In this document: positions 10,787 to 29,776 of the stretch, piece by piece
Position numbering within the stretch: the stretch's first letter is position 1
Layout of the letters: each line of letters opens with the position of its first letter
DNA from: a virus
Lineage: Duplodnaviria; Heunggongvirae; Uroviricota; Caudoviricetes
Direction: 5' to 3' (one strand)
Length of the DNA: 41,959 nucleotides
IMG/VR virus record: IMGVR_UViG_2690316153_000014
Coordinates: 1-41,959 of that record
Translations under genes and position numbers: made by a program
Notes under the pieces: model-generated
What the model saw: the letters and a program-made list of their open reading frames with translations, nothing else
Told to the model about the DNA's origin: nothing
Databases searched by the model: none

Positions 10787-11116
10787 AAATGTTCCTCTTC
10801 TTATTGTACTTAATTCCGAAGTAATTTTACGAAGAGAAATAAGTGGGTGTAAGTGAAGTTAGTCACATAAAGAGATAGCAGATTTAGCTAAAAAAAGGGA
10901 AATAACAGTCCATAAAGCGTTGACATTACTTTCTGTTCTACTAAGTAATTTCTTGCCGATAAACAACTAATCTATTGATATTTAATAAATTATTGCATTT
11001 TACTGACAAAATGCCGAATTGAGATCATAAATAATCATGCAACAGGTTATGCAAATGCATAAATATGTGATGAATGTCACTTATTTATTTCAATAAATAT
11101 ATCACCTAAAAACAAC

Positions 11117-11153
11117 GCGGGGCAGGGAATGACTGCCCCATTTTTAATTTTTA
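11117..11153. terminator. bidirectional intrinsic terminator between ydeO (3' end) and the ydeN upstream region
   Basis: Perfect 7-bp GC stem GGGGCAG/CTGCCCC (11119-11125 with 11133-11139), 7-nt loop, U-runs on both strands. Confidence 0.5.
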
Positions 11154-11189
11154 CGTAGGGTGCGTGGTTGACTACTCGTTAGCAAATAA

Positions 11190-11951: not shown

Positions 11952-12025
11952 TTTATCTCCTTAAAACAATAAAGTTTTTATCGATACTTTGTTAACATTT
12001 CAGATTTATAATTTGCTGTTTATTA

Positions 12026-12223
12026 TCAGTCTTGCAAACTATTGATAATGAAATGTGTAAGATCTCTTGCAATGCGACCCATTTCTGAAATACCCAGCTG
12101 ATCAATTGCCGAAAAAATGGCTATCAACGTAAGGGTCAGTAATAAGACAACCACAATTACAGACATGATTTCTTTATAGTTGTCTCTTTGCGTGATTTTG
12201 TTTTTCACTGTGGTCGCATGCAT
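12026..12223 (-). CDS. safA: small membrane connector protein SafA (EvgS/EvgA to PhoQ/PhoP)
   Basis: 65-aa ORF MHATTVKNKITQRDNYKEIMSVIVVVLLLTLTLIAIFSAIDQLGISEMGRIARDLTHFIINSLQD with one transmembrane helix; directly upstream of ydeO. Confidence 0.85.
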   Translation of the reverse strand: MHATTVKNKITQRDNYKEIMSVIVVVLLLTLTLIAIFSAIDQLGISEMGRIARDLTHFIINSLQD

Positions 12224-12334
12224 TTCAAATATGTTTATTTAGCGGATAACGTTAAAAATCGTTAATCAGTATGCTTAATATAACAGGCTGGAGAAAAGAG
12301 GAAATAGGACTGGCACTTCAGTACTGAGCGGAGT

Positions 12335-12352
12335 TTCTTACAGCTGTAGGCA
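12335..12352 (-). promoter_or_regulatory. EvgA box upstream of safA-ydeO
   Basis: TTCTTACA-GC-TGTAGGCA matches the EvgA consensus TTCYTACA-N2-TGTRGGAA; about 110 bp upstream of the safA start. Confidence 0.65.
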
Positions 12353-12470
12353 GAGGTTTATATCTTATAGTATGTAGTTTAATTTAATCCATGTGAGCAA
12401 ATTGCGCGATAATAGTCAATGAGGGATTCTTCTGCTGTGCGGATGACAGCAGAAGAAATGAGAAGAGGCA

Positions 12471-14750
12471 TTAATTTGATGGTTCTAATTCAACCGGAAT
12501 ACTTTTATAGCCAGGAATGCCACTTAATGGATCGTGGTTATCGAGTGTTAGCATGTGATTCGATTCTGGAAAATAGGTCACCAGTGAGCGGTCAGCCATA
12601 GGGTAAATGACCACTTTTAATCTATCCATGCGGCGTGAGCTACGTTTACCGTCTGGCGTGAGCGCAATAAGATTAACTCTTTCGCCGTTTTTTACACGGC
12701 AAATTTTAGCTTGTTTAGCACTCATAAAGACCACATCTCGTTGACCGAATACCCCTCGATAGCGATCATCCATACCATAAATCGTCGTGTTGTACTGATC
12801 GTGGCTGCGTACTGTCGCCATGACCAGCTTACTGTTAAACGCTGAAGAGGGATCTTCTAACAGCCCTTTGCTGGTAATGAAATTAGCCTTACCTGACGGC
12901 GTCATCCAGCGCCTTTCAGCAGCTGCATTTATCAGGTGAAAACCACCGGGATGACGGATGCGTTGGTTATAGTCGGCGAACTCTGGCAGCACAGCTTCAA
13001 TGTCATTGCGAATGCGATCATAATCTTCCACCAGATACTCCCAGGCTACCACGCTCTGGGGTAGTGCTGCCTGCGCGATTCCCGCGACCACTGCACACTC
13101 TGATTTCAGCATTACACCGGCGGGTTTTAACACGCCACGCGAGGCATGAATCATCGACATTGAATCCTCAACGGTTACCGCCTGCGCACCGCTTTTTTGC
13201 ATGTCAATCTCGCTACGTCCCAGAACCGGCAGAATATAGCTATGCCGTGCGGTCAGCAGATGAGAGCGGTTAAGCTTAGTGGCTACGTGTACCGCCAGAT
13301 CTAATTGCGTTAACGGTACAGCGCTCGCTTCCCGATCTGGCATTGCCAGTGCAAAGTTGCCCCCCATGCAGATCAATGCTCGAGCCTGCCCTGTACATAT
13401 TGCTTGCATGCTGGCAATTGCAGCATGTCCAGGTGCTTGAGGTGGTGTGAAGCCATAGCGCTCACCCAGGCGAGCCAGAAACTCTGCAGACGGTTTCTCG
13501 GTGATACCGACGGTTCGGTCGCCCTGTACATTAGAGTGGCCACGTAGTGGGCAGATACCCGCACCAGGCTTGCCAATGTTACCTTTCATCAACAGCAGAT
13601 TGACCAGTTGCTGTACATTCTGGGTACCATGTTCGTGCTGAGTGATCCCCATTCCGTAACAGATAATGGTGCGTTCGGCAGCGGCATATGCGTCAGCCAG
13701 TTCGGCGATTTGTGTCTGACTTAGTCCAGAAATACGTTCGATATCTTTCCACTCGGAATTGAGAACGTCACGGCGTAGCTCGTCAAAGCCGACGGTATGC
13801 GTTTGAATAAATTCGTCATCAAGCAATGAGGGCCGACCTGCGGCACTTGCAGCATCATCGCGCTCAATTAACAGGCGCATCATCCCCTTGAGCAACGCCA
13901 TATCGCCACCAATGCGCACGTTGTAGTAGGCACTGGCCAACTGAGTCTCAGAGTTCGTCAGCATTTCAAACGGGTTTTGCGGTGCGGTAAATCGCTCCAG
14001 GCCACGTTCCTGTAGAGGATTGATGGCGATCATTTTCGCTCCCCGTTTCACTAAAGCGCGCAACGAAGTCAGCATGCGAGGGTGGTTTGTACCAGGGTTA
14101 TGCCCAATGCAAATGACTAAATCGCACTTCTCAAAGTCTTCCAGCAACACAGTCCCTTTACCCACGCCGATACTCGCTGCCAAACCCACACTGGTCGGTT
14201 CATGGCACATGTTGGAGCAGTCGGGAAAGTTATTGCTCCCGTATTCACGGGCAAAAAGCTGATAAAGAAAGGCAGCTTCATTGGAAGTGCGGCCCGAAGT
14301 ATAGAATTCAACCTGATTGGGATCACTATAGCTTTGAAGGCGTGCGCCAATTTCGTCGAAAGCTTGTTGCCAGCTTAATGGCTTGTAACAGTCGCTGACG
14401 GCATCATATTTCAAAGGCTGAGTGAGACGTCCCGCAGCCTCAAGCTCGTGATCTCCCCAGGTAAGTAATGATTGAACCGTATTCTCAGCAAAGAAAGAGG
14501 CATTTACCTGCTTATCCGTGACTTCCCAGGCGATTGCTTTTGCGCCGTTTTCACAAATGTCGAATGACGCACTGTGCTTAGGATCTGGCCATGCACAACC
14601 CGGACAGTCAAAGCCCTCTGGCTTATTCATGTCAAACATGGCAATAACATCCTGGCGTATATCCATCTGCTTACGTACTGCATTCGCTACGGATTTAACA
14701 GCACCCCAACCACCTGCAGCACCCTGGTAGGATTCAATTTTTTTCTTCAT
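12471..14750 (-). CDS. ydeP: molybdopterin-dependent oxidoreductase YdeP (acid-resistance protein)
   Basis: 759-aa ORF with formate-dehydrogenase-like molybdopterin oxidoreductase features (N-terminal Cys cluster CPGCAWPDP); length and position match YdeP. Confidence 0.9.
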
Positions 14751-14993
14751 CTACTTATCCTGTGTGGAAATGAATTATTAGGATTTGTAATAGCGATGAT
14801 GCACAGTACATACAAAGGGATTATCGCCAACATGGATATATAAGAGTAGGGGACTACTCTCTTTCTATTTTTAATCTATTATCGTTAAACAATAGATTAA
14901 ATACGATAAGTTAAGCATCATCTCTCATAGTGTTTAAATTAACATATTTTTCAATATAAAAAATAAGACTCTGGCTTCAATTGTGCGCGGATT

Positions 14994-15011
14994 TTCTTAC
15001 AGGTGTAGGAT
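14994..15011 (-). promoter_or_regulatory. EvgA box upstream of ydeP
   Basis: TTCTTACA-GG-TGTAGGAT, a second near-consensus EvgA inverted repeat, about 245 bp upstream of the ydeP start. Confidence 0.65.
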
Positions 15012-15083
15012 AATAGCCTTCACAAAATAATTATCCGCGCAATTTTCGTGAATGGAGCGCATAGACTAAGATCAAAATCACAA

Positions 15084-15998
15084 TTATTCATAGATAAAAG
15101 TGACACCAATGACTGACTGGACGGTTCCGGCTGCAACCTTGTTTCCTGTTTGTCCATAGGTTGCGCTTAAACCCAGAGGTACTTTGCTTTTATTTACTGT
15201 CCCCAGGGAGACATTTTCTCCCGTAGCCAGTATTTTTCCATTACGCATCAGAGAGACACCCACTCCCGATGCTTTTGTTGCATCAGGTGCTGTGTTAGCA
15301 AACACTTGTCGGCTACTGTCAGTGGTGGCACCCGAAAGATAAAATGAGAGCTTTTGTTCGCTTGAGCAATATACGCCAAGGGGTATTTCTGCGCTTCCAG
15401 GAAAGTCCGGGAGATCCACAGTGACATTACGACTATCAACGGTGCAGCCGCCTGTTGGCATAACAACATTGTTATTTGAAATAATATTCCACGTAAAATT
15501 ACGCGGATTTCCGCTTCCTAATGTTGCAATTTTATACATATGAATACGAGCAATGACTTCCCCCGCTTTTATGACAACTCCACCGGCCGCCCCAACTGGG
15601 GTAATATAGAGTTTTAACGGTAATGGCATCGGTCTCTTATCACCAATATCCAATACGTTGGTATTTGTCGTCAACGGGAAGGGGTAGGTCACATTATTCC
15701 AGTACAGCGATCCTTTATATGACTGTAGGGAGCCTGCGAAAGCTGAGCCTTGTACCAGGTTTATATGATCAGTGTCGTACCAGCCGCCGTAATCATTCCA
15801 GCAACTTATATGCTGAGACAAGTCTACAACCAGATTCTGGCCCGGCTGTATTACAGGGTCGAGATTAACATAAACAGAGGTTGTACCTGCTCCAATACTT
15901 GACCCGCCATCGACATTACAACTGAAGGCAAAAACTTTGCCTGCCATTAATAGAAGATAAATACCGAACAGGACCTTTATACTGATTGTTTTACCCAT
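15084..15998 (-). CDS. ydeQ: FimH-like two-domain fimbrial tip adhesin (F9/Yde fimbriae)
   Basis: 304-aa ORF with signal peptide and a C-terminal pilin domain ending in a beta-strand motif; last gene of the fimbrial cluster. Confidence 0.8.
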
Positions 15999-16056
15999 GA
16001 TATATCCTAAGGTTAAAAATTGATTTAAAAAGAAGGCTAAGAAAATCGAATCGACG

Positions 16057-16560
16057 TTATTGCCAGGTGTAGATCACATTGATTAGCGCCTCGATCGTTC
16101 CCTGGCTTGCGTTTCCATTCACCGTGATAGCTCTTGCCTTAAGTGGAAACTGTGCATTACGAGTGATCTCATCAACAATAACCGTTTTGCTATCGCCATT
16201 TTTTAACGCAGCATCCTGGTCATCCCTCAGCTCTATCTGAATATTTTCGGCAGTACCTTCATTTTTGTAATAACCCGTATTGTCAGTTGAACCTGTCACG
16301 ATTGCCGTCACTGCACTTGTTTCAACCGGACAATCGGTTAATGACAAAGTAATATTGTGCCAGCCAGATGCAGAACCAGGTTGTTGCAGATTGCGCGTAT
16401 AAAGATCCCCGAGATTAACGTTAGCTTCTTTGGTTTGAATAGTGCAGGGTTTAGCGACTACCCGACCATTAACAGTGATAGTGACATCGGCGGCCTGGAG
16501 AGTTGCTGTGAATAACGCGCAAAACGTAGCTAACAGGAACCTCTTGTGAAGTCTTTTCAT
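16057..16560 (-). CDS. ydeR: FimG-like minor fimbrial subunit
   Basis: 167-aa secreted pilin-like ORF with signal peptide and Cys pair. Confidence 0.8.
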
Positions 16561-16572
16561 ATCTGACTCTGA

Positions 16573-17103
16573 TTATTGAAATTCAAGGGTAAAGGTTGCC
16601 GAAGCCCTCACCAGTCCCGGATTGACGGACTTCTGAGTTGACTTCAGACGAGCGGAGTAAGGCAAAATATTGTTCTGTTCTGGTACCAGTGGGATCCACT
16701 GCATCCCGGCATGAAGGTCATTCAGTTTCACCGGACGCATATTTGCGTCCAATATTTCTATACCCAAACCGGAGGCCGTATTGCTTCCTTCATCCAGTTT
16801 CAACAAAGTATTATTTTCTGCATCCTCAATACCGTTAAATGCAACCCGAACCCCCGTTGTCCCTTTGCTGCATTCACTTAACGTAATCTGAAAAGGGACG
16901 ACTGGACTTGTGCTACCGGTCGTTGGAAATTGTCTGGCACTGTTTTTTTGGAGATCTACGGTAAAATTAAGCGAATCCGATGAGACTGTGCAGCCATAAT
17001 CGAGGACGCGCCCGCTAATTTTAATAACGCTATCTGCGGATAAAGCAGAATAGGTGGTTAACCCCAGACATAAACCGAGGAAAATAATGTTATTGTATTT
17101 CAT
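16573..17103 (-). CDS. ydeS: FimF-like minor fimbrial subunit
   Basis: 176-aa secreted pilin-like ORF. Confidence 0.8.
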   Translation of the reverse strand: MKYNNIIFLGLCLGLTTYSALSADSVIKISGRVLDYGCTVSSDSLNFTVDLQKNSARQFPTTGSTSPVVPFQITLSECSKGTTGVRVAFNGIEDAENNTLLKLDEGSNTASGLGIEILDANMRPVKLNDLHAGMQWIPLVPEQNNILPYSARLKSTQKSVNPGLVRASATFTLEFQ

Positions 17104-17116
17104 AATCTATTGTTCC

Positions 17117-19768
17117 TTAGCGACAGATTGCTGTCTGCTGGTTCAGTAAGGTACCAGGAGAAACTTCAGGAAGCTTGTACTCGACAATACAGTTTGAGTT
17201 TTTATCTTTGCCCCATGAAACCTGTAATTTCCCTGACTGTGGAAGTCCAGTCAGATAAACCTGACCGTTTTCTGCGACAATGCTGCCATTTTTATTCTCT
17301 CCGTGTGTGACAATTGCACCGAATGGAACGCTCTTATTACCGTACTTCAACGTCATTAATACTTTCCCGCCGATTTGTGCATTAAATGTTGCTCTGGCAA
17401 TAGCACCGTGAGTTGGGATGACAGTGACCACGGTTTCATCCAGTTCAACATTATCTGCAAGGGAATTCGCGTTAAGAGCAACACGGTTTTCTCTATATTC
17501 TGTCGCAAATGGTAATATGGCATAGCCACGCCAGTCGGTATGAATTCCGGTCTGGTTCTCTATTTTGACATTATCAGCGCCAGGAGCCTTAACCAGAACC
17601 ATTGTGTCGCCCAGCGGCTGTCCAAAGGTGATGCCATCAGCATGAGCAATAATCCCACCACTCATTCCGTAATAAATCTGGCTGCTGTCACCATTCCGAC
17701 TGTAACCGACATTCGTATTACCGTAAGCTCCACGATAATTAAGAGAACTGTAACCACTGGTGCCAGACGATGTATTACCTCCGTGGGTGTTACCGACCTG
17801 AACGCTATAATTCAGGTTATTATCCGGCAGCAGAGTGCCATAAACCCCCGATAGATTGGTCATGCCGCCTTTCAAATCGTTTGACATACTGTAACTGGCG
17901 TTTGAATTACGAAATGCCGACTGACTGTCTGTACGCATCCAATGACTGAAGGGAACATTAAGCGTAAAAGCGAGTAAATGATCCCGATCGTTTTGCCATA
18001 TATTATTGGAATAGCTGTAATTCAGCGAAGTCGTAATATCACCAAACGGCACATTTAATCCAAATGATATTTGCTGGTCGCTGCGTGACGTGTTCCAGTA
18101 ACTTTGGCGACTGGCACTGAAAAATGTCGTACCGTAATTTCCAAGCTGCTGAGAGATGCTTATTTGTTCCTGACCACGCTTACTGTAGAATAGATTAAAA
18201 TAATCAATAAATTGTGTCTGCTCATTGGTGTCTCCGGTAGGAGGCTTGACGGTGTAACCACTCATTCGACTGTAGGCACTGTCGGATAAGTTATAAAAAC
18301 CTTGCGTAGAATAGCGATATCCTGCGACCTGGATATTGGTTCCTGTCTGGTAGAAGGATTTGCTGTAGACGGATTTAACCGATTGCCCGCTGTGACGGGT
18401 GCCATCTGCAAGTGTCGTATTGGCCTGCGTGATATCGAAAGAAAAGGCACCAAAAAGTCCTAAATCTTTACCAATACCAAGGTTGAAGGCCTGATAATCT
18501 TCTGCAATTTGCATTCCGCCATAAGGTGTCCAGTTTCCTTCCAGTCCATGCATCAAGCTACCTTGTATGAACTTGGGGGAGCTTTGCAGGTTATTTCCAC
18601 TACGATATTCCCCCATGGCAAGCGCATAACGCGTATATCCAGCACGTTGGAGAACCGGAACAGACGAATAAGGAACATATAATGTCTGAATACTGCCGTC
18701 TGCCTCTTTTATGGTTACTTGCAGATCACCACCATTGGCGGCAGAGTTGATATCATCAATAGTAAAAGGGCCGGGTGGAACAGTAGTCTGATAAACATCG
18801 TATCCGTTCTGTTTTACACTCACTTGTGCGGTGCCACGGGCAATACCATGAATCACCGGAGCGAAACCATGTTGGCTATCGGGCAACATCGCTTCTGTTG
18901 AATTTATTTTGAGGCCACGAAAGTTCACACTATCAAAAATATCGCCATCGGTATAACTATCACCTACCGTTAACCGTGAGCGTAAGGGAATAATGTCACG
19001 TTCAGCCGACGTATTGATATGCTGCCATTTATTGCTGTTAGATGAATTGCTACTCCCACTGTTATAACTCCACGTTGAGTTATCGCGCAGTCGCCAACTA
19101 CCAATGTTGATGCCACTCTGTAAATTCAAATATGCATAGTTGGATTTTCCTGCATTATGGTTACTACGATTATTAATGGAATTACCATTAAAACTATGAT
19201 TTAGAAGCCCAGCATTTATTCCTTCTTCCCACAGTTCAGGAGAAACATAGCCGCGAGCCATTCTGCCAACATAAATTTGCGGAACGGAGAGTGACAAATG
19301 TTGCTGACCAACATCAAACTCAGTTGATGCGTCGGCCAAACGATCCTGAAGTGGTGTGCATGCGCTGTTGTCCGGCACATGTTTTTCTGCAGAATGTTCC
19401 TTATTGTCTAATAACGCAGATTTTTTTATGCCAAGACTGACAAGAAGGTCTGTACTCAGACATGGGATGAGATCTGCGTTATTATCATCTGCAATAAAAG
19501 TAATATCCCGACTAGTCATAAATTCGTCGTTCAAATAAATGTCGACCCGATATGTACCAGGTGGTGCCTCGCGTCCCTTAGTAAAGGCGGATAAATCGAC
19601 AGATTCAGCAAGATCATTGCTTAAAAACCGTGGATTAAAATAATACTCTGCATCAACGGGAAAAACCGCAGTTGCTAAGCCAAGGGCAATGGTAAGCCGT
19701 GCAAAGCGTGGTAGTATTAACACCTGATGCATACGATATGCCTTAAATGCGGCACGAAAGGCTGTCAT
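17117..19768 (-). CDS. ydeT: fimbrial outer-membrane usher (FimD family), apparently full length
   Basis: 883-aa ORF of FimD-like size and composition; the real start may be the internal Met (MHQVLIL..., coordinate 19732) that precedes the signal peptide. Confidence 0.8.
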   Translation of the reverse strand: MTAFRAAFKAYRMHQVLILPRFARLTIALGLATAVFPVDAEYYFNPRFLSNDLAESVDLSAFTKGREAPPGTYRVDIYLNDEFMTSRDITFIADDNNADLIPCLSTDLLVSLGIKKSALLDNKEHSAEKHVPDNSACTPLQDRLADASTEFDVGQQHLSLSVPQIYVGRMARGYVSPELWEEGINAGLLNHSFNGNSINNRSNHNAGKSNYAYLNLQSGINIGSWRLRDNSTWSYNSGSSNSSNSNKWQHINTSAERDIIPLRSRLTVGDSYTDGDIFDSVNFRGLKINSTEAMLPDSQHGFAPVIHGIARGTAQVSVKQNGYDVYQTTVPPGPFTIDDINSAANGGDLQVTIKEADGSIQTLYVPYSSVPVLQRAGYTRYALAMGEYRSGNNLQSSPKFIQGSLMHGLEGNWTPYGGMQIAEDYQAFNLGIGKDLGLFGAFSFDITQANTTLADGTRHSGQSVKSVYSKSFYQTGTNIQVAGYRYSTQGFYNLSDSAYSRMSGYTVKPPTGDTNEQTQFIDYFNLFYSKRGQEQISISQQLGNYGTTFFSASRQSYWNTSRSDQQISFGLNVPFGDITTSLNYSYSNNIWQNDRDHLLAFTLNVPFSHWMRTDSQSAFRNSNASYSMSNDLKGGMTNLSGVYGTLLPDNNLNYSVQVGNTHGGNTSSGTSGYSSLNYRGAYGNTNVGYSRNGDSSQIYYGMSGGIIAHADGITFGQPLGDTMVLVKAPGADNVKIENQTGIHTDWRGYAILPFATEYRENRVALNANSLADNVELDETVVTVIPTHGAIARATFNAQIGGKVLMTLKYGNKSVPFGAIVTHGENKNGSIVAENGQVYLTGLPQSGKLQVSWGKDKNSNCIVEYKLPEVSPGTLLNQQTAICR

Positions 19769-19809: not shown

Positions 19810-20295
19810 TTACTGCATGGTTGCCTTAATACGCGGAGTTAATGCACCGTAATCATTGATCGTCTGAAAACTGATATCCCCGGTTGCAGCATGCGGGATA
19901 TCCACCGATACTTCACCTTTTGGCGGCACCATGGTGTTTGGGAGATTGCTATTTCCTGCTTTCATATTTGTTACGGTAATGAAGTAGGGCGTTGGATTAA
20001 TAAGAGTGAGTTTGCTACCGCTGCGACGAAACCGAAGCATTGCTGGCGCTTCTTCAGGTGCCATTGCCAGGTTCGTGGGGCGATAAAACATTTTTATGCG
20101 GCTAATAATTGCCAGCTGTAATGTATTCTCATTCTTCTGGTCTTTTTCCATAGCAGGAATAGCTTTAACATTCACCCAGAACAGGCTTTCACGGTCGCCT
20201 GGTAACTGATGATTAGTAGCGTTGATTATCCGCAGCGTATTCTCTTTTTTACCTTGCATGGAAAAAAGCGGTGGGGTAATGACAAACTGGGTGTC
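19810..20295 (-). pseudogene. periplasmic fimbrial chaperone (FimC family), 5'-truncated by IS3
   Basis: Frame is open from the IS3 boundary (reads [48 protein letters not shown]...). It matches only the C-terminal two thirds of FimC-type chaperones, with no start codon, signal peptide or N-terminal domain. Confidence 0.75.
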
Positions 20296-20351
20296 TGATC
20301 TTACCCAGCAATAGTGGACACGCGGCTAAGTGAGTAAACTCTCAGTCAGAG

Positions 20352-20660
20352 GTGACTCACATGACAAAAACAGTATCAACCAGTAAAAAACCCCGTAAAC
20401 AGCATTCGCCTGAATTTCGCAGTGAAGCCCTGAAGCTTGCTGAACGCATCGGTGTTACTGCCGCAGCCCGTGAACTCAGCCTGTATGAATCACAGCTCTA
20501 CAACTGGCGCAGTAAACAGCAAAATCAGCAGACGTCTTCTGAACGTGAACTGGAGATGTCTACCGAGATTGCACGTCTCAAACGCCAGCTGGCAGAACGG
20601 GATGAAGAGCTGGCTATCCTCCAAAAGGCCGCGACATACTTCGCGAAGCGCCTGAAATGA
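20352..20660 (+). CDS. insE: IS3 OrfA (InsE-type HTH transposase subunit)
   Basis: 99-aa [34 protein letters not shown]... with HTH and leucine-zipper-like C-terminus. Confidence 0.9.
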
Positions 20661-21523
20661 AGTATGTCTTTATTGAAAAACATCAGGCTGAGTTCAGCAT
20701 CAAAGCAATGTGCCGCGTGCTCCGGGTGGCCCGCAGCGGCTGGTATACGTGGTGTCAGCGGCGGACAAGGATAAGCACGCGTCAGCAGTTCCGCCAACAC
20801 TGCGACAGCGTTGTCCTCGCGGCTTTTACCCGGTCAAAACAGCGTTACGGTGCCCCACGCCTGACGGATGAACTGCGTGCTCAGGGTTACCCCTTTAACG
20901 TAAAAACCGTGGCGGCAAGCCTGCGCCGTCAGGGACTGAGGGCAAAGGCCTCCCGGAAGTTCAGCCCGGTCAGCTACCGCGCACACGGCCTGCCTGTGTC
21001 AGAAAATCTGTTGGAGCAGGATTTTTACGCCAGTGGCCCGAACCAGAAGTGGGCAGGAGACATCACGTACTTACGTACAGATGAAGGCTGGCTGTATCTG
21101 GCAGTGGTCATTGACCTGTGGTCACGTGCCGTTATTGGCTGGTCAATGTCGCCACGCATGACGGCGCAACTGGCCTGCGATGCCCTGCAGATGGCGCTGT
21201 GGCGGCGTAAGAGGCCCCGGAACGTTATCGTTCACACGGACCGTGGAGGCCAGTACTGTTCAGCAGATTATCAGGCGCAACTGAAGCGGCATAATCTGCG
21301 TGGAAGTATGAGCGCAAAAGGTTGCTGCTACGATAATGCCTGCGTGGAAAGCTTCTTTCATTCGCTGAAAGTGGAATGTATCCATGGAGAACACTTTATC
21401 AGCCGGGAAATAATGCGGGCAACGGTGTTTAATTATATCGAATGTGATTACAATCGGTGGCGGCGGCACAGTTGGTGTGGCGGCCTCAGTCCGGAACAAT
21501 TTGAAAACAAGAACCTCGCTTAG
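20657..21523 (+). CDS. insF: IS3 OrfB (InsF-type DDE transposase catalytic subunit); start overlaps the orfA stop (ATGA)
   Basis: 288-aa ORF with an RNase-H-fold DDE integrase core; the overlap with orfA fits the usual IS3 -1 frameshift fusion arrangement. Confidence 0.9.
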
Positions 21524-21674
21524 GCCTGTGTCCATATTACGTGGGTAGGATCACGCAGGGGTCGGCCCATTTGAGCTTCAGATAGGAACGTTTGAATTCC
21601 TTTCACAAAATACATCACATACTGAACGTGAACATTCCCACTTTGATCTTAAGGCCAAAAAGTATGCAGGACTA

Positions 21675-23393
21675 ATGATTTTTAGGGATAGCTTGAGAGT
21701 ATTACCTTATGGTCGAGTAGATAATGATTTCTTCCAGATAGAAGAAAGACGTTCATGGAATGCTGGGCGATATTATTGGTCTAATAGAAGGATTTTTGGT
21801 TATATTGGAATTACTCAATCCAGTAATAAAGAGCTGAAAGATAAGTCGGGGAGAGAGGGATTCATAAGAAACCAGGCTGCAAGAGAACTGAAAACTATTA
21901 TATCTAATTTGTTAACTGAACTTGCTGATAGATTTTTTGGTTCACGTTCTGATGACCGTAAAGAGCTTTTAGAACAAGTTAAGCGTGAAAAAGAGTTAAG
22001 AAAATCTGCTCAACAACAAGCTCGAAAATCAACACAAAAAAGTTTTTCAGAAGCTTTGAAGAATCAGACACCAGTTCTTGATGCTTCCTTGGAGGCTGTT
22101 AAAAGGCTGAAAACTAAGCTTGATAAAACTGATGGTTCGTTAGATTTAAACTATCTTAAAATTATAGACAGTGATCTTACAAACTTAGATGCGTTGCGCA
22201 GTGAAATTAAAACGCCTATCAAACCTCCAAAACTTGGAATGTATGAAGAGAAATATAGAGACTACAGAGATAAATTTAATGAGTTCTCTGCGTATATTCT
22301 ACAAATGAAGTTAGCAATTAATAAACTTGATTCTGAATTAAATAAACTTGAGCCTTCATTGTCAGCGAAAAATCACCTTGAAAAAAATCAAGGTATTATT
22401 AATTCTAAACTAACTAAGTTTAATAACACGATAGAGGAGAAGATACATTCTCTTTTAAAAAAATGGGCCGATGAAATAAAGGTTGATCGAAGTGATTATT
22501 ATGCTAAAACTATATCAGTTGTTGATTCAATAGATAATGATTCACAAATTGAAAATGTGTTTAATTTGCTCGATAGTTTATATGTTGAGTCAGTTGATAC
22601 CCTAACTTTCAAATATCAATCAATAATAAAAGGTCTCGATAGATTATTTGAAGGTATAAACTTAGATTCAGCATTCTCATTATCTGAAGAAGAACGCTCA
22701 TATTTTGAAGAAAAAGCTAAAAGTTTAAACGCGCTTGCACAGTTAGGTATTAGTGTTGAGATAATATCTCATGAACTTGAAGAAATGGATTCTATGGTAA
22801 CCAGAGGACTAAACTCTCTTCCTACTTCTGTAAAAGAACACCCTGGTTTTTCATTGGCGTTAAATGCTCACAGATCGCTTACTCAACAAATACGTTTCTT
22901 ATCACCTTTGAAAATATCAGGTTATCAATCCAGGCAGAGAATAACTGGAAAAAATATCATGGATTATGTCCTGAAGTTCTTTGGGGAGCGTTTCGAACGG
23001 CAACGAATAACTATTGAATTTAGTGAAGAGTTTAAGCAAATCGCAATAACAGATATACCATCAAGGATCTATCCTGTTTTTACTAATATTATCAACAATG
23101 CAATGTATTGGGTCAGTCTGTCAAATAATAGGCTCATAAAGATTGGTTTTGTGAATTCTTTGGTTATCATAGCAAATTCTGGTCCGGCAATTGATACCGA
23201 TGATATCCCGCGACTATTTGAACTATTTTATAGCAAAAGAGCAAATGGACATGGGGTAGGTCTGTATCTATGTCGAGAAAACCTTGCTGTTGCACATCAT
23301 AAAATATGGTATTCAGAACCTGATGAAGGCGATAACTATTTAATAAAAGATGGCGCTAATTTTGTGATCCAGTTCAATGGAGTGGAGTTCTAA
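21675..23393 (+). CDS. cytoplasmic histidine-kinase-like protein (coiled-coil N-terminal region, H-box-like ISHELEEM, C-terminal HATPase_c/GHKL domain); possibly 5'-truncated by IS3
   Basis: C-terminus carries N box (VFTNIINNAMYWV), G1 (IIANSGPAIDTDD), F (LFELFYSKR) and G2 (GHGVGLYLC) motifs. No transmembrane segment. The frame stays open upstream of the ATG back into the IS3 right end (stop at 21546-21548). AT-rich codon usage. Confidence 0.6.
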   Translation: MIFRDSLRVLPYGRVDNDFFQIEERRSWNAGRYYWSNRRIFGYIGITQSSNKELKDKSGREGFIRNQAARELKTIISNLLTELADRFFGSRSDDRKELLEQVKREKELRKSAQQQARKSTQKSFSEALKNQTPVLDASLEAVKRLKTKLDKTDGSLDLNYLKIIDSDLTNLDALRSEIKTPIKPPKLGMYEEKYRDYRDKFNEFSAYILQMKLAINKLDSELNKLEPSLSAKNHLEKNQGIINSKLTKFNNTIEEKIHSLLKKWADEIKVDRSDYYAKTISVVDSIDNDSQIENVFNLLDSLYVESVDTLTFKYQSIIKGLDRLFEGINLDSAFSLSEEERSYFEEKAKSLNALAQLGISVEIISHELEEMDSMVTRGLNSLPTSVKEHPGFSLALNAHRSLTQQIRFLSPLKISGYQSRQRITGKNIMDYVLKFFGERFERQRITIEFSEEFKQIAITDIPSRIYPVFTNIINNAMYWVSLSNNRLIKIGFVNSLVIIANSGPAIDTDDIPRLFELFYSKRANGHGVGLYLCRENLAVAHHKIWYSEPDEGDNYLIKDGANFVIQFNGVEF

Positions 23394-23394
23394 T

Positions 23395-25143
23395 ATGACA
23401 GTGGCAAATTATAATTCTCTTGTCCAGAAAACTTTCTGCGAAAATGCAATTCGTTCCGTTGTCATGATTGATGACGATTTTCTGACGTATTCTGAATCAA
23501 TCAGGGCGTTGAATAACGAAGTTGATTTAGACTACAACAAAATTGACTCATCTAAACGAGCCGCTACTCTTGAGAGCTTTTTTCAATCTAAAAATATGAT
23601 TTGTGATGTTGACAATGGTTCTGTTAATTTCGATGTGGATCGGATTAGAAAATCAGATCTTATTATTGTAGATTATCATCTTGATAATAATGCACCTGAT
23701 AAAACACTTAAACTATTACAAGATTTGAAAGACTCCGATCATTTAAATATGATTGTAATATATACTAGAGAGAATTTAGAAACGGTTTGGATGCAGATAT
23801 CATCGACTCTCAAAGGTGCTCTGGATATCAACAGCTTGATCATTGACTACGATAATGAAGATGTCCAAAGTTATTGGGAAGACGTTGTATTACCGAACTT
23901 AAATGATAATGGTAATAAAGCTCTCACAAGAGATGAAACAATAGCCTATATTAAAGACAGTAAGCCTTGTAGAAGAATTAAAAGATTAATACATGATGAT
24001 GCTGTGTTGGAGGATCAAAAGGATAAAAACTTCATTGCAAAAATGATTGCAGAATATGCTGTGTCTAGAAATGCAATTATTTCTAGCAACACATCTGGCA
24101 ATGTCATTCGGGGTGATGAAAGCGGAGTAAAATGGATTCAATGTGGTAATATCTTTGTCTCCCTATTTCATAAGGTTCAAGATGATCATGAAAACGATGG
24201 AGATAGGATTTGGCAAACTCTCAATGATTCTCTCATTGAATGGAAACCATCTTATTATCAGTTAATAAAATCTGAAATTCAGAATGCAATCGAAGCTGAG
24301 GCTTTATCTTTTGTAAATCATTTGGCTAACGATCATTACGGTCAAGCTGCGTGGTTAAATGAGATATTAAAATCAGACTCGCCTGATATTAGATGTAGAA
24401 ATATTGACTTTGTATTTGGTAATTTATCAGAAGAGCTTTATCAAAGACTTAAAAATAATAATACGCTGGATGAATTTATCAAAAGTGTTTTTGATAGCTA
24501 TTCAAATGAATACGCTAACAGCGGAGTTGCTGCATTGCTCCAATATTGCTCTTCAAAAATGGATCTGCCATCAAATAATGATACTTATCACGAAATGTAT
24601 CATGCTTTAAATATGAATTTGTCTTCAAAGAATTTTGAAGATGGTCATATTTCTACTGGCACTATTTTCTTTGATACAGAGTCGAACAAATGGTATTTAT
24701 GTGTATCTGCGGCATGTGATTTGGTTCCTACTCAGGGTAACGACCCTCACCATGTAAGATTAAGTCCGCACAGGCTCATTAAAGTTCTGGAGCTTTTTAA
24801 CGCCAGTCAGAGTAAAGCATTGCCATTTGCTGAACATTCGAAATATATATATGTAATGCATAAAAATCAAAGAAAATATCTCTCTATTTTCGAAGGGGAT
24901 AAAACGCTTCCTGTTGTTGATTATATGGTGGTGTTGAATCATGGAACAACAGTTGATGGCGAAGAAAAAAATATTATTTCTGCCGTGTTTTTAAGTAATA
25001 TGGATGGCAACGTGCAAAATGTTCCTGTCCGACTCAAACTTAAATCTCAACTGAGAACTGGTTATGCAGAAAGATATCAGGCTATAGCGTCTCAGTATAG
25101 CTCAAGGATTGGTGTGGATTATGTATCAATGATGCTACCATAA
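23395..25143 (+). CDS. response-regulator-like protein: N-terminal receiver (REC) domain plus a roughly 440-aa C-terminal domain of unknown function
   Basis: REC hallmarks: acidic cluster VVMIDDDF, candidate phospho-acceptor Asp in LIIVDYHLD, conserved Thr in MIVIYTRE. GGAG Shine-Dalgarno 7 nt upstream; the ATG lies 2 nt after the kinase stop (an alternative in-frame ATG is at 23377). I recognise no DNA-binding or enzymatic motif in the C-terminal domain. Confidence 0.6.
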   Translation: MTVANYNSLVQKTFCENAIRSVVMIDDDFLTYSESIRALNNEVDLDYNKIDSSKRAATLESFFQSKNMICDVDNGSVNFDVDRIRKSDLIIVDYHLDNNAPDKTLKLLQDLKDSDHLNMIVIYTRENLETVWMQISSTLKGALDINSLIIDYDNEDVQSYWEDVVLPNLNDNGNKALTRDETIAYIKDSKPCRRIKRLIHDDAVLEDQKDKNFIAKMIAEYAVSRNAIISSNTSGNVIRGDESGVKWIQCGNIFVSLFHKVQDDHENDGDRIWQTLNDSLIEWKPSYYQLIKSEIQNAIEAEALSFVNHLANDHYGQAAWLNEILKSDSPDIRCRNIDFVFGNLSEELYQRLKNNNTLDEFIKSVFDSYSNEYANSGVAALLQYCSSKMDLPSNNDTYHEMYHALNMNLSSKNFEDGHISTGTIFFDTESNKWYLCVSAACDLVPTQGNDPHHVRLSPHRLIKVLELFNASQSKALPFAEHSKYIYVMHKNQRKYLSIFEGDKTLPVVDYMVVLNHGTTVDGEEKNIISAVFLSNMDGNVQNVPVRLKLKSQLRTGYAERYQAIASQYSSRIGVDYVSMMLP

Positions 25144-25215
25144 TTATTATATTTTAGGCGTGGTGATTTTTTTTTCGCCATGCCTATTTTATATTTATCA
25201 TCACAATGATGTTGT

Positions 25216-25632
25216 TTATTTTTGTTTAAGTCTTCTAAGCTTCATGCATTCTAATGAGAATAATAATAGAGTTGTGCTGTATATAAAGCCAGAGTTAGTT
25301 AATAACTTTAAATTTAATGCTTCAGGATTTTCACTGAGAAAGTGAAAGGCATAAACTAAGTATACAGCTAAAGTAGCCGTTCCAATTGTTGGTCCAATAT
25401 CGCCTTGATCATGAGGTTCAAGGTTTACATTGAACTTGAAGATTAGCCATTCAAATCCCCAAGTAAAAAAAACAACTAATATCATGGCTGCGAATAATTT
25501 CGCGATGTTATCTGCTGATGGATTCATCAGAACAGATTGTTTCTGAAAAAATTCACAAAGTGAGAGTCCGAAAAAAATAAAAAAAAGTGGTCTGGAACTA
25601 AATTTTTCAAAAACTTTGAATAGGGTTTCCAT
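25216..25632 (-). CDS. small integral membrane protein (about 4 predicted TM helices), unknown function
   Basis: 138-aa ORF with four hydrophobic stretches; AT-rich; sits between the REC-protein gene and the integrase. Confidence 0.45.
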   Translation of the reverse strand: METLFKVFEKFSSRPLFFIFFGLSLCEFFQKQSVLMNPSADNIAKLFAAMILVVFFTWGFEWLIFKFNVNLEPHDQGDIGPTIGTATLAVYLVYAFHFLSENPEALNLKLLTNSGFIYSTTLLLFSLECMKLRRLKQK

Positions 25633-25670
25633 TTTCTTTACCTTCAGGATTATATTAGCTATTCTGATAC

Positions 25671-26900
25671 TTAGGCTACCAGAGCATTTGATCTTTGAGC
25701 TTGAACGTAATCACTCCACCATTGCATCAAACTCTGTCGCTCTATCAGATATTCTGCACGATTGTATGCTGCGATAATTTCATCTTTTTTCGAGTGGGCA
25801 AGCGCTGCCTCAAGAACTTCAGCTCTGAATTTACCAGACTCCTCTGCCGCTGTTCGTGCAATAGAACGCATACCGTGAGCTACAAGCTCGCCTCCGAACC
25901 CCATTCGGATGATAGCTGCGTTGGCTGTTTGTTCATGCATATGATTAAGAGGCGCTTTTATGCTGGGGAAAACCCATTCTCTATGCCCACTTATTGATTT
26001 CATTAATTCAAGGATGCGCAAAGCTTCTTTACTCAAAGGAACTTTGTGAAGCTTTTTCATTTTCATGAAATCAGCAGGAATGTTCCAAATGCTGTTGGTT
26101 GTATCAATATCAGACCACCTTGCGCGAACGGCTTCACCCGGACGAACCCATGTCAACAATTGCCATTCAATTAGCATACGTGTTTCCAACCGGATTGACG
26201 CATTCGTCAAAGATTCCATAAACCTTGGCAATTCGCTTGGGGGAAGGGCAGGCATATTTTGCTTTTTTGGTTTACTGAATCTTTGACCAAGGTTGTCAGC
26301 CGGGTTGAACTCAATAAGTTCTTCAGTAGCTGCCCACCGGAAGATTTCATTCAGACGTGAAATGATACGGCGTAGAGTTTCCAATACGCCTCGTTGCTCA
26401 ATAGGATCAAGGTGTTGTTTTAAGAGCTTAGGTCGGATCTCATTGATAGGGACATTACCCAGACCGGGAAAGACATTTCTCTCTAAGCTGCGCCAGATGT
26501 CTGCTGCATGGTCTTGTGAGATACCTGATGTCTTTACCTTCTCATCTAACCATTTCCGCGCTACGGCTTGGAGAGTGTGCTCAGTAGCACTCTTTAATGC
26601 CTTCGCCTTATCGTTGTTATGGATTTGGGGATCAACACCATTTGCCAGAAAGGAGAGATATTCATCACGTAAGGCTCTGGCTCTTGCAAGGGTAAGGTGA
26701 GGATATGTCCCAAGGCTCATTTTGGTTCTTTTCTTGCTCACTGGTACTGTATACCTGAAATACCAATTTTTCTTGCCTCCTTTCGCCAAAGGAGCGATTC
26801 GTAGAATCAGACCATCACCGTCAAACAAGTTGATTTCTTTATCGGCTGGCTTGGTGCTTTTGATTTCAGTGTCAGTGAGCTTCTTAGCGATTTTTGCCAT
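25671..26900 (-). CDS. P4-type (CP4-57 IntA-like) tyrosine integrase
   Basis: N-terminal arm-binding region MAKIAKKLTDTEIKSTKPADKEINLFDGDGL...WYFRY and C-terminal catalytic region with HxxR and terminal Tyr. Start set at the Met with a GAGG Shine-Dalgarno (track ORF begins 14 codons earlier at 26942). Confidence 0.8.
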   Translation of the reverse strand: MAKIAKKLTDTEIKSTKPADKEINLFDGDGLILRIAPLAKGGKKNWYFRYTVPVSKKRTKMSLGTYPHLTLARARALRDEYLSFLANGVDPQIHNNDKAKALKSATEHTLQAVARKWLDEKVKTSGISQDHAADIWRSLERNVFPGLGNVPINEIRPKLLKQHLDPIEQRGVLETLRRIISRLNEIFRWAATEELIEFNPADNLGQRFSKPKKQNMPALPPSELPRFMESLTNASIRLETRMLIEWQLLTWVRPGEAVRARWSDIDTTNSIWNIPADFMKMKKLHKVPLSKEALRILELMKSISGHREWVFPSIKAPLNHMHEQTANAAIIRMGFGGELVAHGMRSIARTAAEESGKFRAEVLEAALAHSKKDEIIAAYNRAEYLIERQSLMQWWSDYVQAQRSNALVA

Positions 26901-27065
26901 TTTGGGACCCTCGGTTTTTGGACCCTTCTTAGTGGGTCCCATTCAGGGTGCCATAACTCGTAGTTCTCAGCAATTCTCACTGGACGACAATAGACGTAAA
27001 AAAGCCCGCAGAGCTTGTGCTGTGTGGGCTTAGTAGACTTCATTGAACTTCAAACAACTAAAAAG

Positions 27066-27100
27066 TGGTGGAGCTGGCGGGAGTTGAACCCGTATCCGAA
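27066..27100 (-). repeat. attachment-site-like repeat resembling the 3' end of ssrA (tmRNA), not a complete RNA gene
   Basis: Reverse complement reads TTCGGATACGGGTTCAACTCCCGCCAGCTCCACCA (T-arm, acceptor 3' strand, CCA), close to the E. coli ssrA 3' end as I remember it. Upstream sequence has no tag-coding or 5' acceptor region. Lies 166 bp upstream of the P4-type integrase start. Confidence 0.6.
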
Positions 27101-27358
27101 AAATTCTTAACCAATTGAATATTAATGATTTTTCTAATTTAAAATACCTCACGTGCATTTTACGTGCATATTGTAGTACCTCTAACGTCCTGATTCTGTC
27201 CAACATTTTGAAGTGTTTAGGCGCCACTGGGGCGGTGATTAGCGCTGTTTTGTGCTGTTCATAGCACTTCAAGACTATTCAATTCAGAGCAATCGTTGAA
27301 GAATTACCCGTAAGGTAATATCATACTATTTAGGTAACTGCGGTTATCACCATCAAGG

Positions 27359-27394
27359 GCCACTGATGACGCTGTTATCATCAGTGGCTTTTTG
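27359..27394 (+). terminator. strong plus-strand intrinsic terminator (perfect 11-bp stem) upstream of the two-gene cassette
   Basis: GCCACTGATGA (27359-27369), 8-nt loop, TCATCAGTGGC (27378-27388), then TTTTT. No U-run on the opposite strand. Confidence 0.55.
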
Positions 27395-27435
27395 TACCTT
27401 CACTGCACAGCCAGTGAAGTGTTGAGGAGACTAGC

Positions 27436-27777
27436 ATGAGAACAGTAGCGAGAAGATCGATACAGACGATTGAGCGTCGGACTCAACTCGTCAGTTCTTT
27501 TGTTGACTCAAACACAGCAAACGAGTTCTTCGTGAGAAGACTGAGTGATCGTGTCTCCCCGGCACGTCAGCTGTTTATTGTGACATTGAACAATGAGGTT
27601 CGTGACGGTGACGTGATCCCGTTCGCTGAGATCGCCATGAACAAAGAAAAATTGCGCTATGTTGTGAAGCCAGCAGATCAGTATCCTCAGTATGTAAGCA
27701 GTAATCTGCTGAAGAAAATTGAAGCGGCAATTGCTCTATACATGCAGAAGAACTACAGGGAAATTAACTACCATTAA
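27436..27777 (+). CDS. hypothetical protein (113 aa), first gene of a two-gene cassette
   Basis: ORF preceded by GAGGAG Shine-Dalgarno (27424-27429); 11-bp gap to the next gene; I recognise no motif. Confidence 0.5.
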   Translation: MRTVARRSIQTIERRTQLVSSFVDSNTANEFFVRRLSDRVSPARQLFIVTLNNEVRDGDVIPFAEIAMNKEKLRYVVKPADQYPQYVSSNLLKKIEAAIALYMQKNYREINYH

Positions 27778-27788
27778 AAGGTTGCTGA

Positions 27789-28556
27789 ATGGCTCCTGCG
27801 TTAATACCTTCATATAACAAGGACTTGAACATTACGCCATTTGGCGAAAAACGTCTTATTGAGTCATTCTATTTTTTCACTGCCGAGGCTGGCTTACTGA
27901 GGGCTGATGAGTACATTGTCAGTTCTGGTGAGTTTCAGTACTACTTGGATGTGTATCAACTGGGATGTTCCACCGACGACTTTTTTTTAGACTATGGCAG
28001 TGACCTTCTTGATTCGAAGGTTCCAATGCAGGATCTGGTCAATACCCTCTTGGGTCTTGATATGGTAGACGATAACAAAACGATAAGAATAGGTCGTATA
28101 CAGTTCAACGACTTTAATTTTATCGAAGAGAACGGTCAGATGATGACCGGAAAGCAAGTGAAAAGCGCTGTTATCGCACAGGATTTCCAATCAGCAGGTT
28201 TGGCGCGTGAGATCTATAAAATGCTTGCGCGAAAGCATGAGTTTCTCATCTGCGATAACATTCAAAGTATTGCCGGTGGTGCTCTTTGGGCTAGTAGCAT
28301 CATTCGAATTGCCGAGGTACGGATCTACAATTCACGCACGAAGAAATTTATGGACATACTTGGTCCAGGTGCGCGTGGCGTTTCAGGTACTTTGCCATGG
28401 AGTGCGAATGATCTGTCTGTAGATGAGATTGTTCGCTGGGGTCGTGCGTATGATGATGAAAACTGTTGTCGTCACATTGTACATGTTATCTGTAAGGACC
28501 GACTCATTGACGATCAATTTCATGATTATGTTTCGATAGGTGGCGCGACAGAATAA
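27789..28556 (+). CDS. hypothetical protein (255 aa), second gene of the cassette
   Basis: Coding-like composition, tightly linked to the upstream ORF, followed by a terminator; no recognised domain. Confidence 0.5.
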   Translation: MAPALIPSYNKDLNITPFGEKRLIESFYFFTAEAGLLRADEYIVSSGEFQYYLDVYQLGCSTDDFFLDYGSDLLDSKVPMQDLVNTLLGLDMVDDNKTIRIGRIQFNDFNFIEENGQMMTGKQVKSAVIAQDFQSAGLAREIYKMLARKHEFLICDNIQSIAGGALWASSIIRIAEVRIYNSRTKKFMDILGPGARGVSGTLPWSANDLSVDEIVRWGRAYDDENCCRHIVHVICKDRLIDDQFHDYVSIGGATE

Positions 28557-28561
28557 CCATC

Positions 28562-28590
28562 AAAAAGACCCGGCATTTGCCGGGTTTTTT
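28562..28590. terminator. bidirectional intrinsic terminator between the cassette and the prophage integrase
   Basis: A-run, stem ACCCGGC/GCCGGGT (28568-28574 with 28579-28585), loop ATTT, T-run; works on both strands. Confidence 0.65.
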
Positions 28591-28597
28591 CTTCAAA

Positions 28598-29776
28598 TCA
28601 CTTCTTCATTCCAGATTCCATTGCGGTTTTCCCGTCGTATTCAGCCAGGTATTTACCGTAATTGCGGAACAGCATTTCCGGCCCCTTATGCCCCATCTGC
28701 CCGGCAAGCCAGAAAAGGTTTACACCCTGGCTAATGTGTCTGGTGGCGAATGTGTGGCGCGTCTGGTACGGGTTACGGTAGCGCACACCAGCTTTTTTCA
28801 GGGTCGGCACCCATGCTTTTTTACGGATAGCGTCGGCGTTCGTCCAGGGATCTCCCGTTTTCGGATCGCTGAATATGAACTCACTTTTCATAAAGGTGTA
28901 TTGCTTCTGCGCCTGCAGGGCCGCCAGCGCCTCACTGTTCAGCTCCACCTTACGGGTACCGGCTTTTGTCTTGGTGCCTTTAAGTACCCCTACGACACTG
29001 GCCGCCTGTATGTGCGCTGTATTACCTATAAAGTCGATATCGGTCCAACGTAATGCGCATAGCTCAGAGCTGCGTAGCCCTGTATTGAAGGCGAAGCGGA
29101 ACAGATTCTGCCATTCCTGATACTTGCAGTGCTGATATATGGCACTGGTTTCCGCAGGCGCAAACGGATCAACTTCGTAATCGTCGGCGTTCGGTTTACT
29201 GTCGACCACGTGATACCGGCTGGCGCTGACAAGAGTTACCGGGTTAATAGTCAACAGGCCATCAGTTACAGCCTCATCAATGGCGCTGCGCAGAAATGAC
29301 AGGTTATTCCTGATTGTTTTCAGCTTAGTTTTTCGGCTGGCTATCCAATTTTTTAGTACCGCAGGCGTCAATTCTGTTACATGTAGTTTATGTAGTTCTG
29401 ATAGTGCTGATAGACATTTTTCGTAACCGCCAATGGTTGACGGCGACAGATTGCGGTTCATGCAAATTTTCAGGTATTCATCAAGATAGGACTTAATATT
29501 TTTGGTTTTCTTTACTACACCGAATAACTCCAGTTTTTTGGAACTGGGGAAATATTTCGCATATTCAAACGTTCCGCTGGCGATCTGATTTTGTATCTCC
29601 CCTAGCAGGCGCTCAGCATATTTAATACCACGTGTATTTGCCTCAAGCCGAGACAGGGGCTCCCTGCAAAGAACCCCTTTATATGTGAAAGTGATAACTA
29701 GTGTTGAAGCAGTTTTATGCTTACGAATAGTTACTCCTCTTGGCAGAGATAATAATCCTTGTTCTTTCTTGCCCAT
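28598..29776 (-). CDS. lambdoid prophage tyrosine integrase
   Basis: 392-aa ORF with catalytic-domain residues (R in LRSSELCALRW, HTFATRH, terminal Tyr region); an excisionase-like ORF overlaps its start, as in lambda int-xis. Confidence 0.8.
   Translation of the reverse strand: MGKKEQGLLSLPRGVTIRKHKTASTLVITFTYKGVLCREPLSRLEANTRGIKYAERLLGEIQNQIASGTFEYAKYFPSSKKLELFGVVKKTKNIKSYLDEYLKICMNRNLSPSTIGGYEKCLSALSELHKLHVTELTPAVLKNWIASRKTKLKTIRNNLSFLRSAIDEAVTDGLLTINPVTLVSASRYHVVDSKPNADDYEVDPFAPAETSAIYQHCKYQEWQNLFRFAFNTGLRSSELCALRWTDIDFIGNTAHIQAASVVGVLKGTKTKAGTRKVELNSEALAALQAQKQYTFMKSEFIFSDPKTGDPWTNADAIRKKAWVPTLKKAGVRYRNPYQTRHTFATRHISQGVNLFWLAGQMGHKGPEMLFRNYGKYLAEYDGKTAMESGMKK

Follow-up and report, generated by a model that had tools for sequence, protein, structure and literature searches.

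The DNA considered here, hereafter the window, is the whole of IMG/VR virus record IMGVR_UViG_2690316153_000014 (41,959 nucleotides, filed under Caudoviricetes), and it is a segment of the Escherichia coli chromosome. At positions 21554-25143, a sequence-only reading had proposed an undescribed cytoplasmic phosphorelay module, namely, a histidine-kinase-like protein and a receiver-domain protein with a large unassigned output, encoded by two AT-rich genes. Two co-directional open reading frames (ORFs), named here ORF A and ORF B, are indeed present, and their joint GC content is 0.343 versus 0.446 for the window. What the window holds is probably not a new and complete module but a degraded relic. 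We favour, with moderate confidence, the reading that a three-gene mobile system has left its 3' part here as a relic, and that the intact family serves a restriction-modification-like defence or addiction. The three genes, referred to below as the triad, code for a C5 DNA methylase, a full-length kinase and the receiver protein. The features on which this reading is built are as follows.

20296-21553, plus strand: IS3 insertion sequence (IS) element of 1258 bp, with its ends read from the sequence; it is labelled IS3 in identical E. coli loci, and its right end is the truncation junction.
20352-21523: IS3 orfA/orfB transposase.
21554-21674, plus strand: in-frame kinase remnant (codons 377-416), without a start codon and outside any ORF; its translation, AGVGPFELQIGTFEF...KKYAGL, corresponds to residues 377-416 of the intact 988-residue protein.
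21675-23393, plus strand: 5'-truncated kinase-like gene (ORF A), a 572-residue ORF running from the internal Met417, defined by Pfam and by comparison with an intact homologue.
23395-25143, plus strand: receiver-domain protein gene (ORF B), 582 residues; an alternative start at 23377 would give 588 residues.

The first gene does not code for a complete protein. ORF A corresponds to codons 417-988 of a 988-residue protein and is cut at the end of the IS3, base 21554 being the first base past the IS3 right inverted repeat. In-frame homology reaches back to codon 377 at the junction, where the segment beginning AGVGPFELQ... represents residue 377 onward of the intact protein, and no start codon lies ahead of Met417. 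Aligned with the last 572 residues of the intact homologue, ORF A has 567 identical positions of 572. The nearest full-length homologues, found in Klebsiella, Serratia and Salmonella, are 99% identical and 988 residues long (range for full-length proteins, 988-994), and full-length members carry an N-terminal MORC-like GHKL module, HATPase_c_3 (PF13589), with conserved ATP-binding motifs. At the nucleotide level, window positions 21553-27101 match positions 11127-16673 of an intact island (locus L003) with 98.9% identity, and the match stops exactly at the IS3. The triplets beside the IS3, GTC and CGC, differ, so that there is no target-site duplication, which points to an IS-associated deletion or rearrangement and not to a simple insertion. 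At the ssrA island of E. coli, a deletion associated with IS3 has thus taken away the methylase gene together with kinase codons 1-376. As a result, ORF A of the window lacks residues 1-376, hence PF13589, and displays only part of the full HATPase_c_3, HEF_HK and HATPase_c architecture; the linked C5 DNA methylase (PF00145) is likewise missing from the window.

ORF A retains the end of the MORC-like module along with a helical linker, HEF_HK and HATPase_c. Pfam places HEF_HK (PF19191) at residues 356-414 (E = 1e-5, 26.1 bits against a gathering cutoff of 24.1) and HATPase_c at residues 462-553 (E = 2e-11). The H-box-like ISHELEEM segment pointed out by the sequence-only reading falls within the HEF_HK match; the H-box reads EIISHELEEM, with a motif SHELEE whose His is kept in 11 of 11 aligned homologues. 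The predicted phospho-acceptor is this residue, His366 of ORF A and His782 of the full protein. The predicted absence of a membrane anchor was borne out by a hydropathy scan, the 19-residue maxima of 1.38 (ORF A) and 0.96 (ORF B) indicating no membrane segment in either protein, and a coiled coil in ORF A is plausible from its composition. The claim of a complete catalytic core needs correction. HATPase_c is present, and the kinase alignment shows conservation of the GHKL motifs of the N-terminal domain, the H-box histidine and the N and G2 boxes, but the G1 box deviates. The canonical G1 box is D-x-G-x-G. In the C-terminal HATPase_c (ORF A residues ~498-510), it reads N-S-G-P-x in Enterobacterales and Acinetobacter, and D-T-G-P-G in an Acidobacteria member; the kinase half of this clade may have an atypical ATP site. 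ORF B has two candidate starts, one that makes it overlap ORF A by 17 nt and one that lies 1 nt past the ORF A stop codon; the latter (582 residues) is the choice of NCBI and of the intact homologues. A scan of the DNA 3' of the IS3 found promoter-like sites at a frequency not above chance, and is thus uninformative on expression.

In the intact loci L003 and L004, an island adjacent to ssrA/smpB carries three genes in a row, coding for the methylase (PF00145, 402 residues), the 988-residue kinase and the 582-residue receiver protein, the methylase gene overlapping the kinase gene by 20 nt. In L003 these genes occupy positions 8812-10020, 10001-12967 and 12969-14717, respectively. The triad was also found on an E. 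coli integrative and conjugative element (ICE), on an Acidobacteriaceae ICE, on a metagenomic contig and as cargo of a Tn7-like element in Acinetobacter, where the methylase gene is convergent and lies next to a small helix-turn-helix (HTH) gene, as in type II systems. A survey with a receiver-protein profile yielded 44 genome loci, 37 of which had enough flanking sequence to be judged. A full-length kinase gene with both halves lies directly upstream of the receiver gene in all 37, across phyla, and a C5 methylase is adjacent in 36 (29 upstream and co-directional, 7 downstream and convergent). The unit is therefore the triad, and not the self-contained two-gene module initially suggested. No conventional restriction endonuclease gene lies beside the methylase in the intact loci with precomputed Pfam annotation, and neither these loci nor the window contain an Hpt gene, as had been noticed for the pair. 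This near-obligate methylase is new here and places the kinase and receiver where the restriction enzyme would sit. The sequence identities of kinase and receiver co-vary (Spearman 0.83), whereas methylase identity correlates at only ~0.4 (0.40) with that of the kinase or receiver, which argues that methylases have been exchanged between otherwise related systems.

Some loci of the survey depart from this layout in their own ways. A Gemmatimonadetes metagenome-assembled genome (MAG) holds the sole triad-type locus without a C5 methylase within 7 kb (L044), the methylase of another locus is split into two ORFs (L045), and the receiver gene of a third is split in the same manner (L032); these three are possible pseudogenes or sequencing errors. 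A 5.6-kb contig assigned to a Bacteroidales MAG (L015, DAIPZW010000118.1) codes for a receiver protein 100% identical to that of the E. coli relic and, like the relic, for the C-terminal half of the kinase only; it is probably a mis-binned E. coli fragment.

With regard to E. coli populations, 560 of 5426 complete genomes (~10%) carry the relic, always from the same base, whereas none of the 5426 has the intact allele or a second intact E. coli allele. LY180 is one of the strains with the relic. Several strains carry extra IS elements within the relic, some of them in the receiver gene. In O103:H2, an IS3-family element cuts this gene at codon 453, and the 453-residue receiver fragment corresponds to a protein cluster of 1605 members. 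Since the sensor domain and the methylase were lost together, the relic is most likely inert or uncoupled. The E. coli 572-residue 'ATP-binding protein' is an IS-truncated fragment, unfit as a cloned representative or as a count of a natural architecture, and beyond this warning on truncated representatives the window locus itself adds little. In one O103:H2 strain (FWSEC0007, locus L059, 2501-7401), the relic abuts an alpha-amylase pseudogene with no IS3 at the junction, and the element that splits the receiver gene at codon 453 is another one of the IS3 family; this is further decay and suggests that the original IS3 was lost after the deletion.

The second protein carries a receiver domain, as proposed. 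ORF B matches Response_reg_2 (PF19192) with E = 4e-31, and both window proteins exceed the Pfam gathering thresholds of their respective families. In an AlphaFold2 model of the receiver protein (pLDDT 84), a (beta-alpha)5 receiver fold spans residues ~1-285, with a helical insertion of ~100 residues between beta4 and beta5, followed by a helical bundle (~287-410), a beta-rich domain (~411-553) and a last helix at the C-terminus; residues 262-582, modelled separately, reach a pLDDT of 82. Because the receiver fold and its insertion fill residues ~1-285, the output part amounts to ~300 residues, and not to the ~440 first estimated. Conservation was assessed in 206 sequences (median identity, 31%), in which D26, D27, D88, D93, T124 and K260 of the receiver are invariant or nearly so, including the receiver catalytic residues. 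In the output part, the same holds for W283, P285, N406, G422, C441 (100%), R554, R571, G573 and D575, of which N406, C441, R554, R571 and D575 form an invariant residue set described here for the first time. When the output module was compared by phmmer with 1.84 billion representative sequences, nearly all of the best matches listed shared the receiver-output architecture, and the 344 cluster representatives at 50% identity have essentially one architecture. These 344 clusters extend from Proteobacteria to Acidobacteria and Planctomycetota, and the family is carried on ICEs, Tn7-like transposons and integrative islands.

The nature of this output module was approached by several searches. 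Neither half matches a Pfam family at E <= 10, no usable PDB sequence-profile match was obtained with the whole receiver protein or with its C-terminal module, and Foldseek of the output module against the PDB returned only noise. By Pfam, PDB sequence and fold searches, the receiver protein has no detectable DNA-binding domain, in agreement with the non-DNA-binding output of the sequence-only reading, and no nuclease fold or motif was found in either the kinase or the receiver protein. A likeness of the beta-rich domain to the CcdB/MazF/Kid toxin fold may be taken as a lead only. The receiver output differs from these toxins in having no sequence similarity to them and no Foldseek support, a larger beta domain (~160 residues) preceded by a helical bundle, and invariant residues Cys441 and Asn406 without a mappable counterpart; the beta-domain segment has no Pfam match at E <= 10, including PemK_toxin and CcdB. 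A PD-(D/E)xK reading of the D...CDL segment in the output was dropped for want of a lysine partner, of invariance at D442 and of fold support.

The pair was held to be undescribed, which proved incorrect. It was described in silico in 2021 by Bellieny-Rabelo, Pretorius & Moleleki (Genome Biol Evol, PMC8011034), whose work founded Pfam families PF19191 and PF19192, reported a gene linkage of 91.6%, and already used an E. coli member. These authors noticed that C5 methylases are often located upstream and that restriction-modification domains are significantly enriched within ten genes, and they proposed a descent from paraMORC ATPases; the C-terminal part of the receiver protein was not analysed there. 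They also reported an up-regulation of the genes in Pectobacterium during infection, and considered HEF_HK proteins devoid of HATPase_c_3 as a natural 'group 2' (34 of 222 sequences). As the E. coli case demonstrates, some 'group 2' kinases at least are IS truncations, and IS-truncated or mis-called genes, such as the 572-residue E. coli, Salmonella, Klebsiella and Yersinia entries, are probably part of this group. More recently, Table S5 of the DefensePredictor study (Science 2026, PMC13092281) scored both proteins as defensive, listing WP_000214990.1 (log-odds 12.0) and WP_000577254.1 (log-odds 6.6, remote MzaB GHKL hit) each as a 'Predicted novel defense gene'; the tables examined from that study do not give the transcription unit of the window pair as cloned or validated. 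At NCBI, the second protein is named 'response regulator receiver domain'. The family is thus known and catalogued, and moderately interesting. In PADLOC and NCBIfam, both proteins and the full-length kinase gave only marginal or generic kinase hits far below the cutoffs, and no PADLOC model matched them. The horizontal acquisition and defence-like context put forward for the pair are supported. A V. cholerae paraMORC paper was considered as work on this family and rejected, since it concerns the Shedu nuclease.

As compared with the published HEF_HK/Response_reg_2 pair, the window shows the same adjacent, co-directional genes and soluble proteins, and the family shares the C5 methylase linkage and the paraMORC ATPase relation; the window copy differs by the loss of HATPase_c_3 and of the methylase through the IS3-associated deletion. 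The paraMORC/MORC GHKL ATPases of restriction-modification operons (Iyer, Abhiman & Aravind 2008) have the same N-terminal GHKL module (PF13589) and ATP motifs, and intact family members likewise adjoin a Dcm-type methylase on mobile DNA. However, in the intact family a histidine-kinase core is joined to the GHKL module and the partner is a receiver protein, and not helicases or classical nucleases, while the window copy lacks the GHKL module altogether. The resemblance to type II restriction-modification systems with C5 methylases lies in a solitary, tightly linked C5 methylase, sometimes convergent and accompanied by a C-protein-like HTH gene, and in the mobile, sporadically distributed cassette; unlike these systems, the triad has no recognisable restriction endonuclease, and the kinase/receiver pair stands in its place.

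Detocs reportedly consists of the kinase DtcA, the Hpt protein DtcB and DtcC, a receiver domain joined to a purine nucleoside phosphorylase (PNP). What the family described here shares with Detocs (Rousset et al. 2023) is a defence context and a soluble kinase whose signal goes to a receiver domain with a non-transcriptional effector attached. The family differs by the lack of an Hpt gene and of a PNP domain, no Pfam domain being found after the receiver, by another H-box family and by the near-obligate methylase partner. No PADLOC model matched, and there was no meaningful hit in PADLOC v2.0.0 for the two proteins or the full-length kinase, the presence of Detocs models in that version being unconfirmed.

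From these elements we can propose how the intact system, made of a C5 DNA cytosine methylase, a soluble 988-residue kinase (MORC-like GHKL, linker, HEF_HK and HATPase_c) and a 582-residue receiver protein, might function as a restriction-modification-like defence or addiction. The methylase would mark self DNA, and the MORC-like ATPase would sense unmarked or foreign DNA and trigger autophosphorylation at the HEF-box histidine. The phosphoryl group would then pass to Asp93 of the receiver, a transfer suggested, like the autophosphorylation, by residue conservation. Phosphorylation of Asp93 would free the C-terminal effector to act as a toxin or nuclease, possibly as a CcdB/MazF-like toxin domain using N406, C441, R554, R571 and D575. 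A cell losing the methylase alone would be expected to suffer self-attack, and the removal of methylase and sensor domain in one deletion fits a system in which loss of the methylase alone is harmful. Three themes that seldom occur together, DNA methylation, a MORC-type ATPase and His-Asp phosphotransfer, are united in the family. Should the restriction-like model prove correct, two-component signalling in immunity would have its second case, after Detocs, and its first with a coupling to epigenetic self-marking; the model would also be relevant to the way in which MORC ATPases recognise the state of DNA.

Several observations weigh against this reading, some concerning the mechanism and others the status of the relic. 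The N-S-G-P G1 box of this clade means that ATP binding by the kinase half is not assured, no DNA-reading element was identified in the kinase or the receiver protein, and the resemblance of the output to CcdB/MazF is moderate and was not reproduced by Foldseek, Pfam or PDB sequence profiles. Swapped methylases would be awkward for a sequence-specific restriction model, and our literature search found no experimental study of any HEF_HK/Response_reg_2 family member. As for the relic, both ORFs are open in most E. coli copies, and a plausible AGGA ribosome-binding site lies ahead of Met417 in ORF A. Relative to the intact allele, the receiver gene has 12 synonymous codon changes and 1 non-synonymous one, from which some residual function may be argued, and the kinase fragment has 4 synonymous and 5 non-synonymous changes, these counts being small and the changes possibly older than the truncation.

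A bolder version of the proposal, to which we give no more than tentative credit, would make the intact family a new class of epigenetic immunity. Here, the MORC-like ATPase would read the 5-methylcytosine status of DNA and, through a His-to-Asp phosphorelay, activate a previously unseen Cys-dependent toxin or nuclease relying on N406, C441, R554, R571 and D575. In this version the relic might in addition retain a sensor-independent activity, since its receiver gene would still be under purifying selection.

It is rather unlikely, in our opinion, that the triad is mainly a selfish addiction module acting by post-segregational killing, with the receiver output as toxin, methylation as 'antidote' and phage defence as a side effect at most. 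Its carriage on ICEs, mobilisable islands and Tn7-like transposons would suit such a role, as would the single E. coli deletion of methylase and sensor domain, which fits an intolerance of methylase loss alone. However, the fold assignment of the output is weak, and in restriction-modification-like systems addiction does not preclude defence. Equally doubtful is the hypothesis of the 2021 study that the family is a regulatory two-component system for neighbouring restriction-modification genes, and not an effector. The enrichment of restriction-modification domains and the Pectobacterium up-regulation mentioned above, as well as the typical receiver and H-box residues, speak for regulation, but a regulator of this kind is difficult to reconcile with a receiver protein devoid of a detectable DNA-binding domain, with a solitary C5 methylase as the only other recurrent gene, which leaves no cognate nuclease to regulate, and with a compact cassette moving on ICEs, Tn7-like elements and integrative islands.

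The least probable alternative, which we regard as very unlikely, is that the window pair is a complete and functional two-gene cytoplasmic phosphorelay defence system, Detocs-like without Hpt: its two ORFs are open and translationally coupled, its DHp-like (dimerisation and histidine phosphotransfer) and CA (catalytic and ATP-binding) domains and receiver residues are intact, its receiver gene has few non-synonymous changes, DefensePredictor favours both proteins and 'group 2' offers apparent precedents, but ORF A starts at an internal Met, 121 nt past the IS3 end, with in-frame homologous codons reaching the junction, the kinase is full-length in every judged locus, the native promoter was deleted with the methylase and the promoter-like sites do not exceed chance, and secondary IS insertions have occurred in some lineages.

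Returning to the relic of the triad and its surroundings, the island continues beyond the receiver gene with the following features.

25155-25186, plus strand: terminator-like hairpin with a T-run, directly 3' of the receiver gene, found by consensus scan only; likely operon end.
25216-25632, minus strand: 138-residue hydrophobic hypothetical protein (WP_000448925.1), between the receiver gene and the integrase; island cargo.
25671-26942, minus strand: P4-type tyrosine integrase of the ssrA-integrated island (Pfam Arm-DNA-bind_3, Phage_int_M and Phage_integrase).
27066-27101, minus strand: ~36-nt match to the ssrA 3' end (attachment-site copy), marking the right edge of the island, with another integrative element beyond.

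The description of an integrase-bounded island thus applies on one side only, as the left part, including the methylase gene, has been deleted. The P4-type integrase adjoins ssrA/smpB in L003 and in another locus (L001), and the match between the window and L001 runs to L001 position 17579, within ssrA (17544-17906); ARAGORN detected no full tmRNA gene in the window. The 138-residue protein, with a hydropathy maximum of 2.06, is present in the intact island L003 and missing from other triads, and has no match in Pfam, PADLOC or NCBIfam.

A second integrative element is located in tandem at the ssrA site (window 27102-29776), with its integrase at 28598-29776 on the minus strand. Its adjacent ORFs, 27436-27777 (113 residues) and 27789-28556 (255 residues), have no Pfam, PADLOC or NCBIfam match and count as unassigned island cargo. 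On the other side, the left flank of the IS3 in the window (19810-21553 region) comprises a 5'-truncated fimbrial chaperone gene and then an usher operon. This join of fimbrial genes, IS3 and relic occurs in no complete E. coli genome of the collection, and may result from an IS3-IS3 rearrangement or from a join made across the repeat during assembly. In E. coli, what commonly lies to the left of the IS3 is an alpha-amylase pseudogene.

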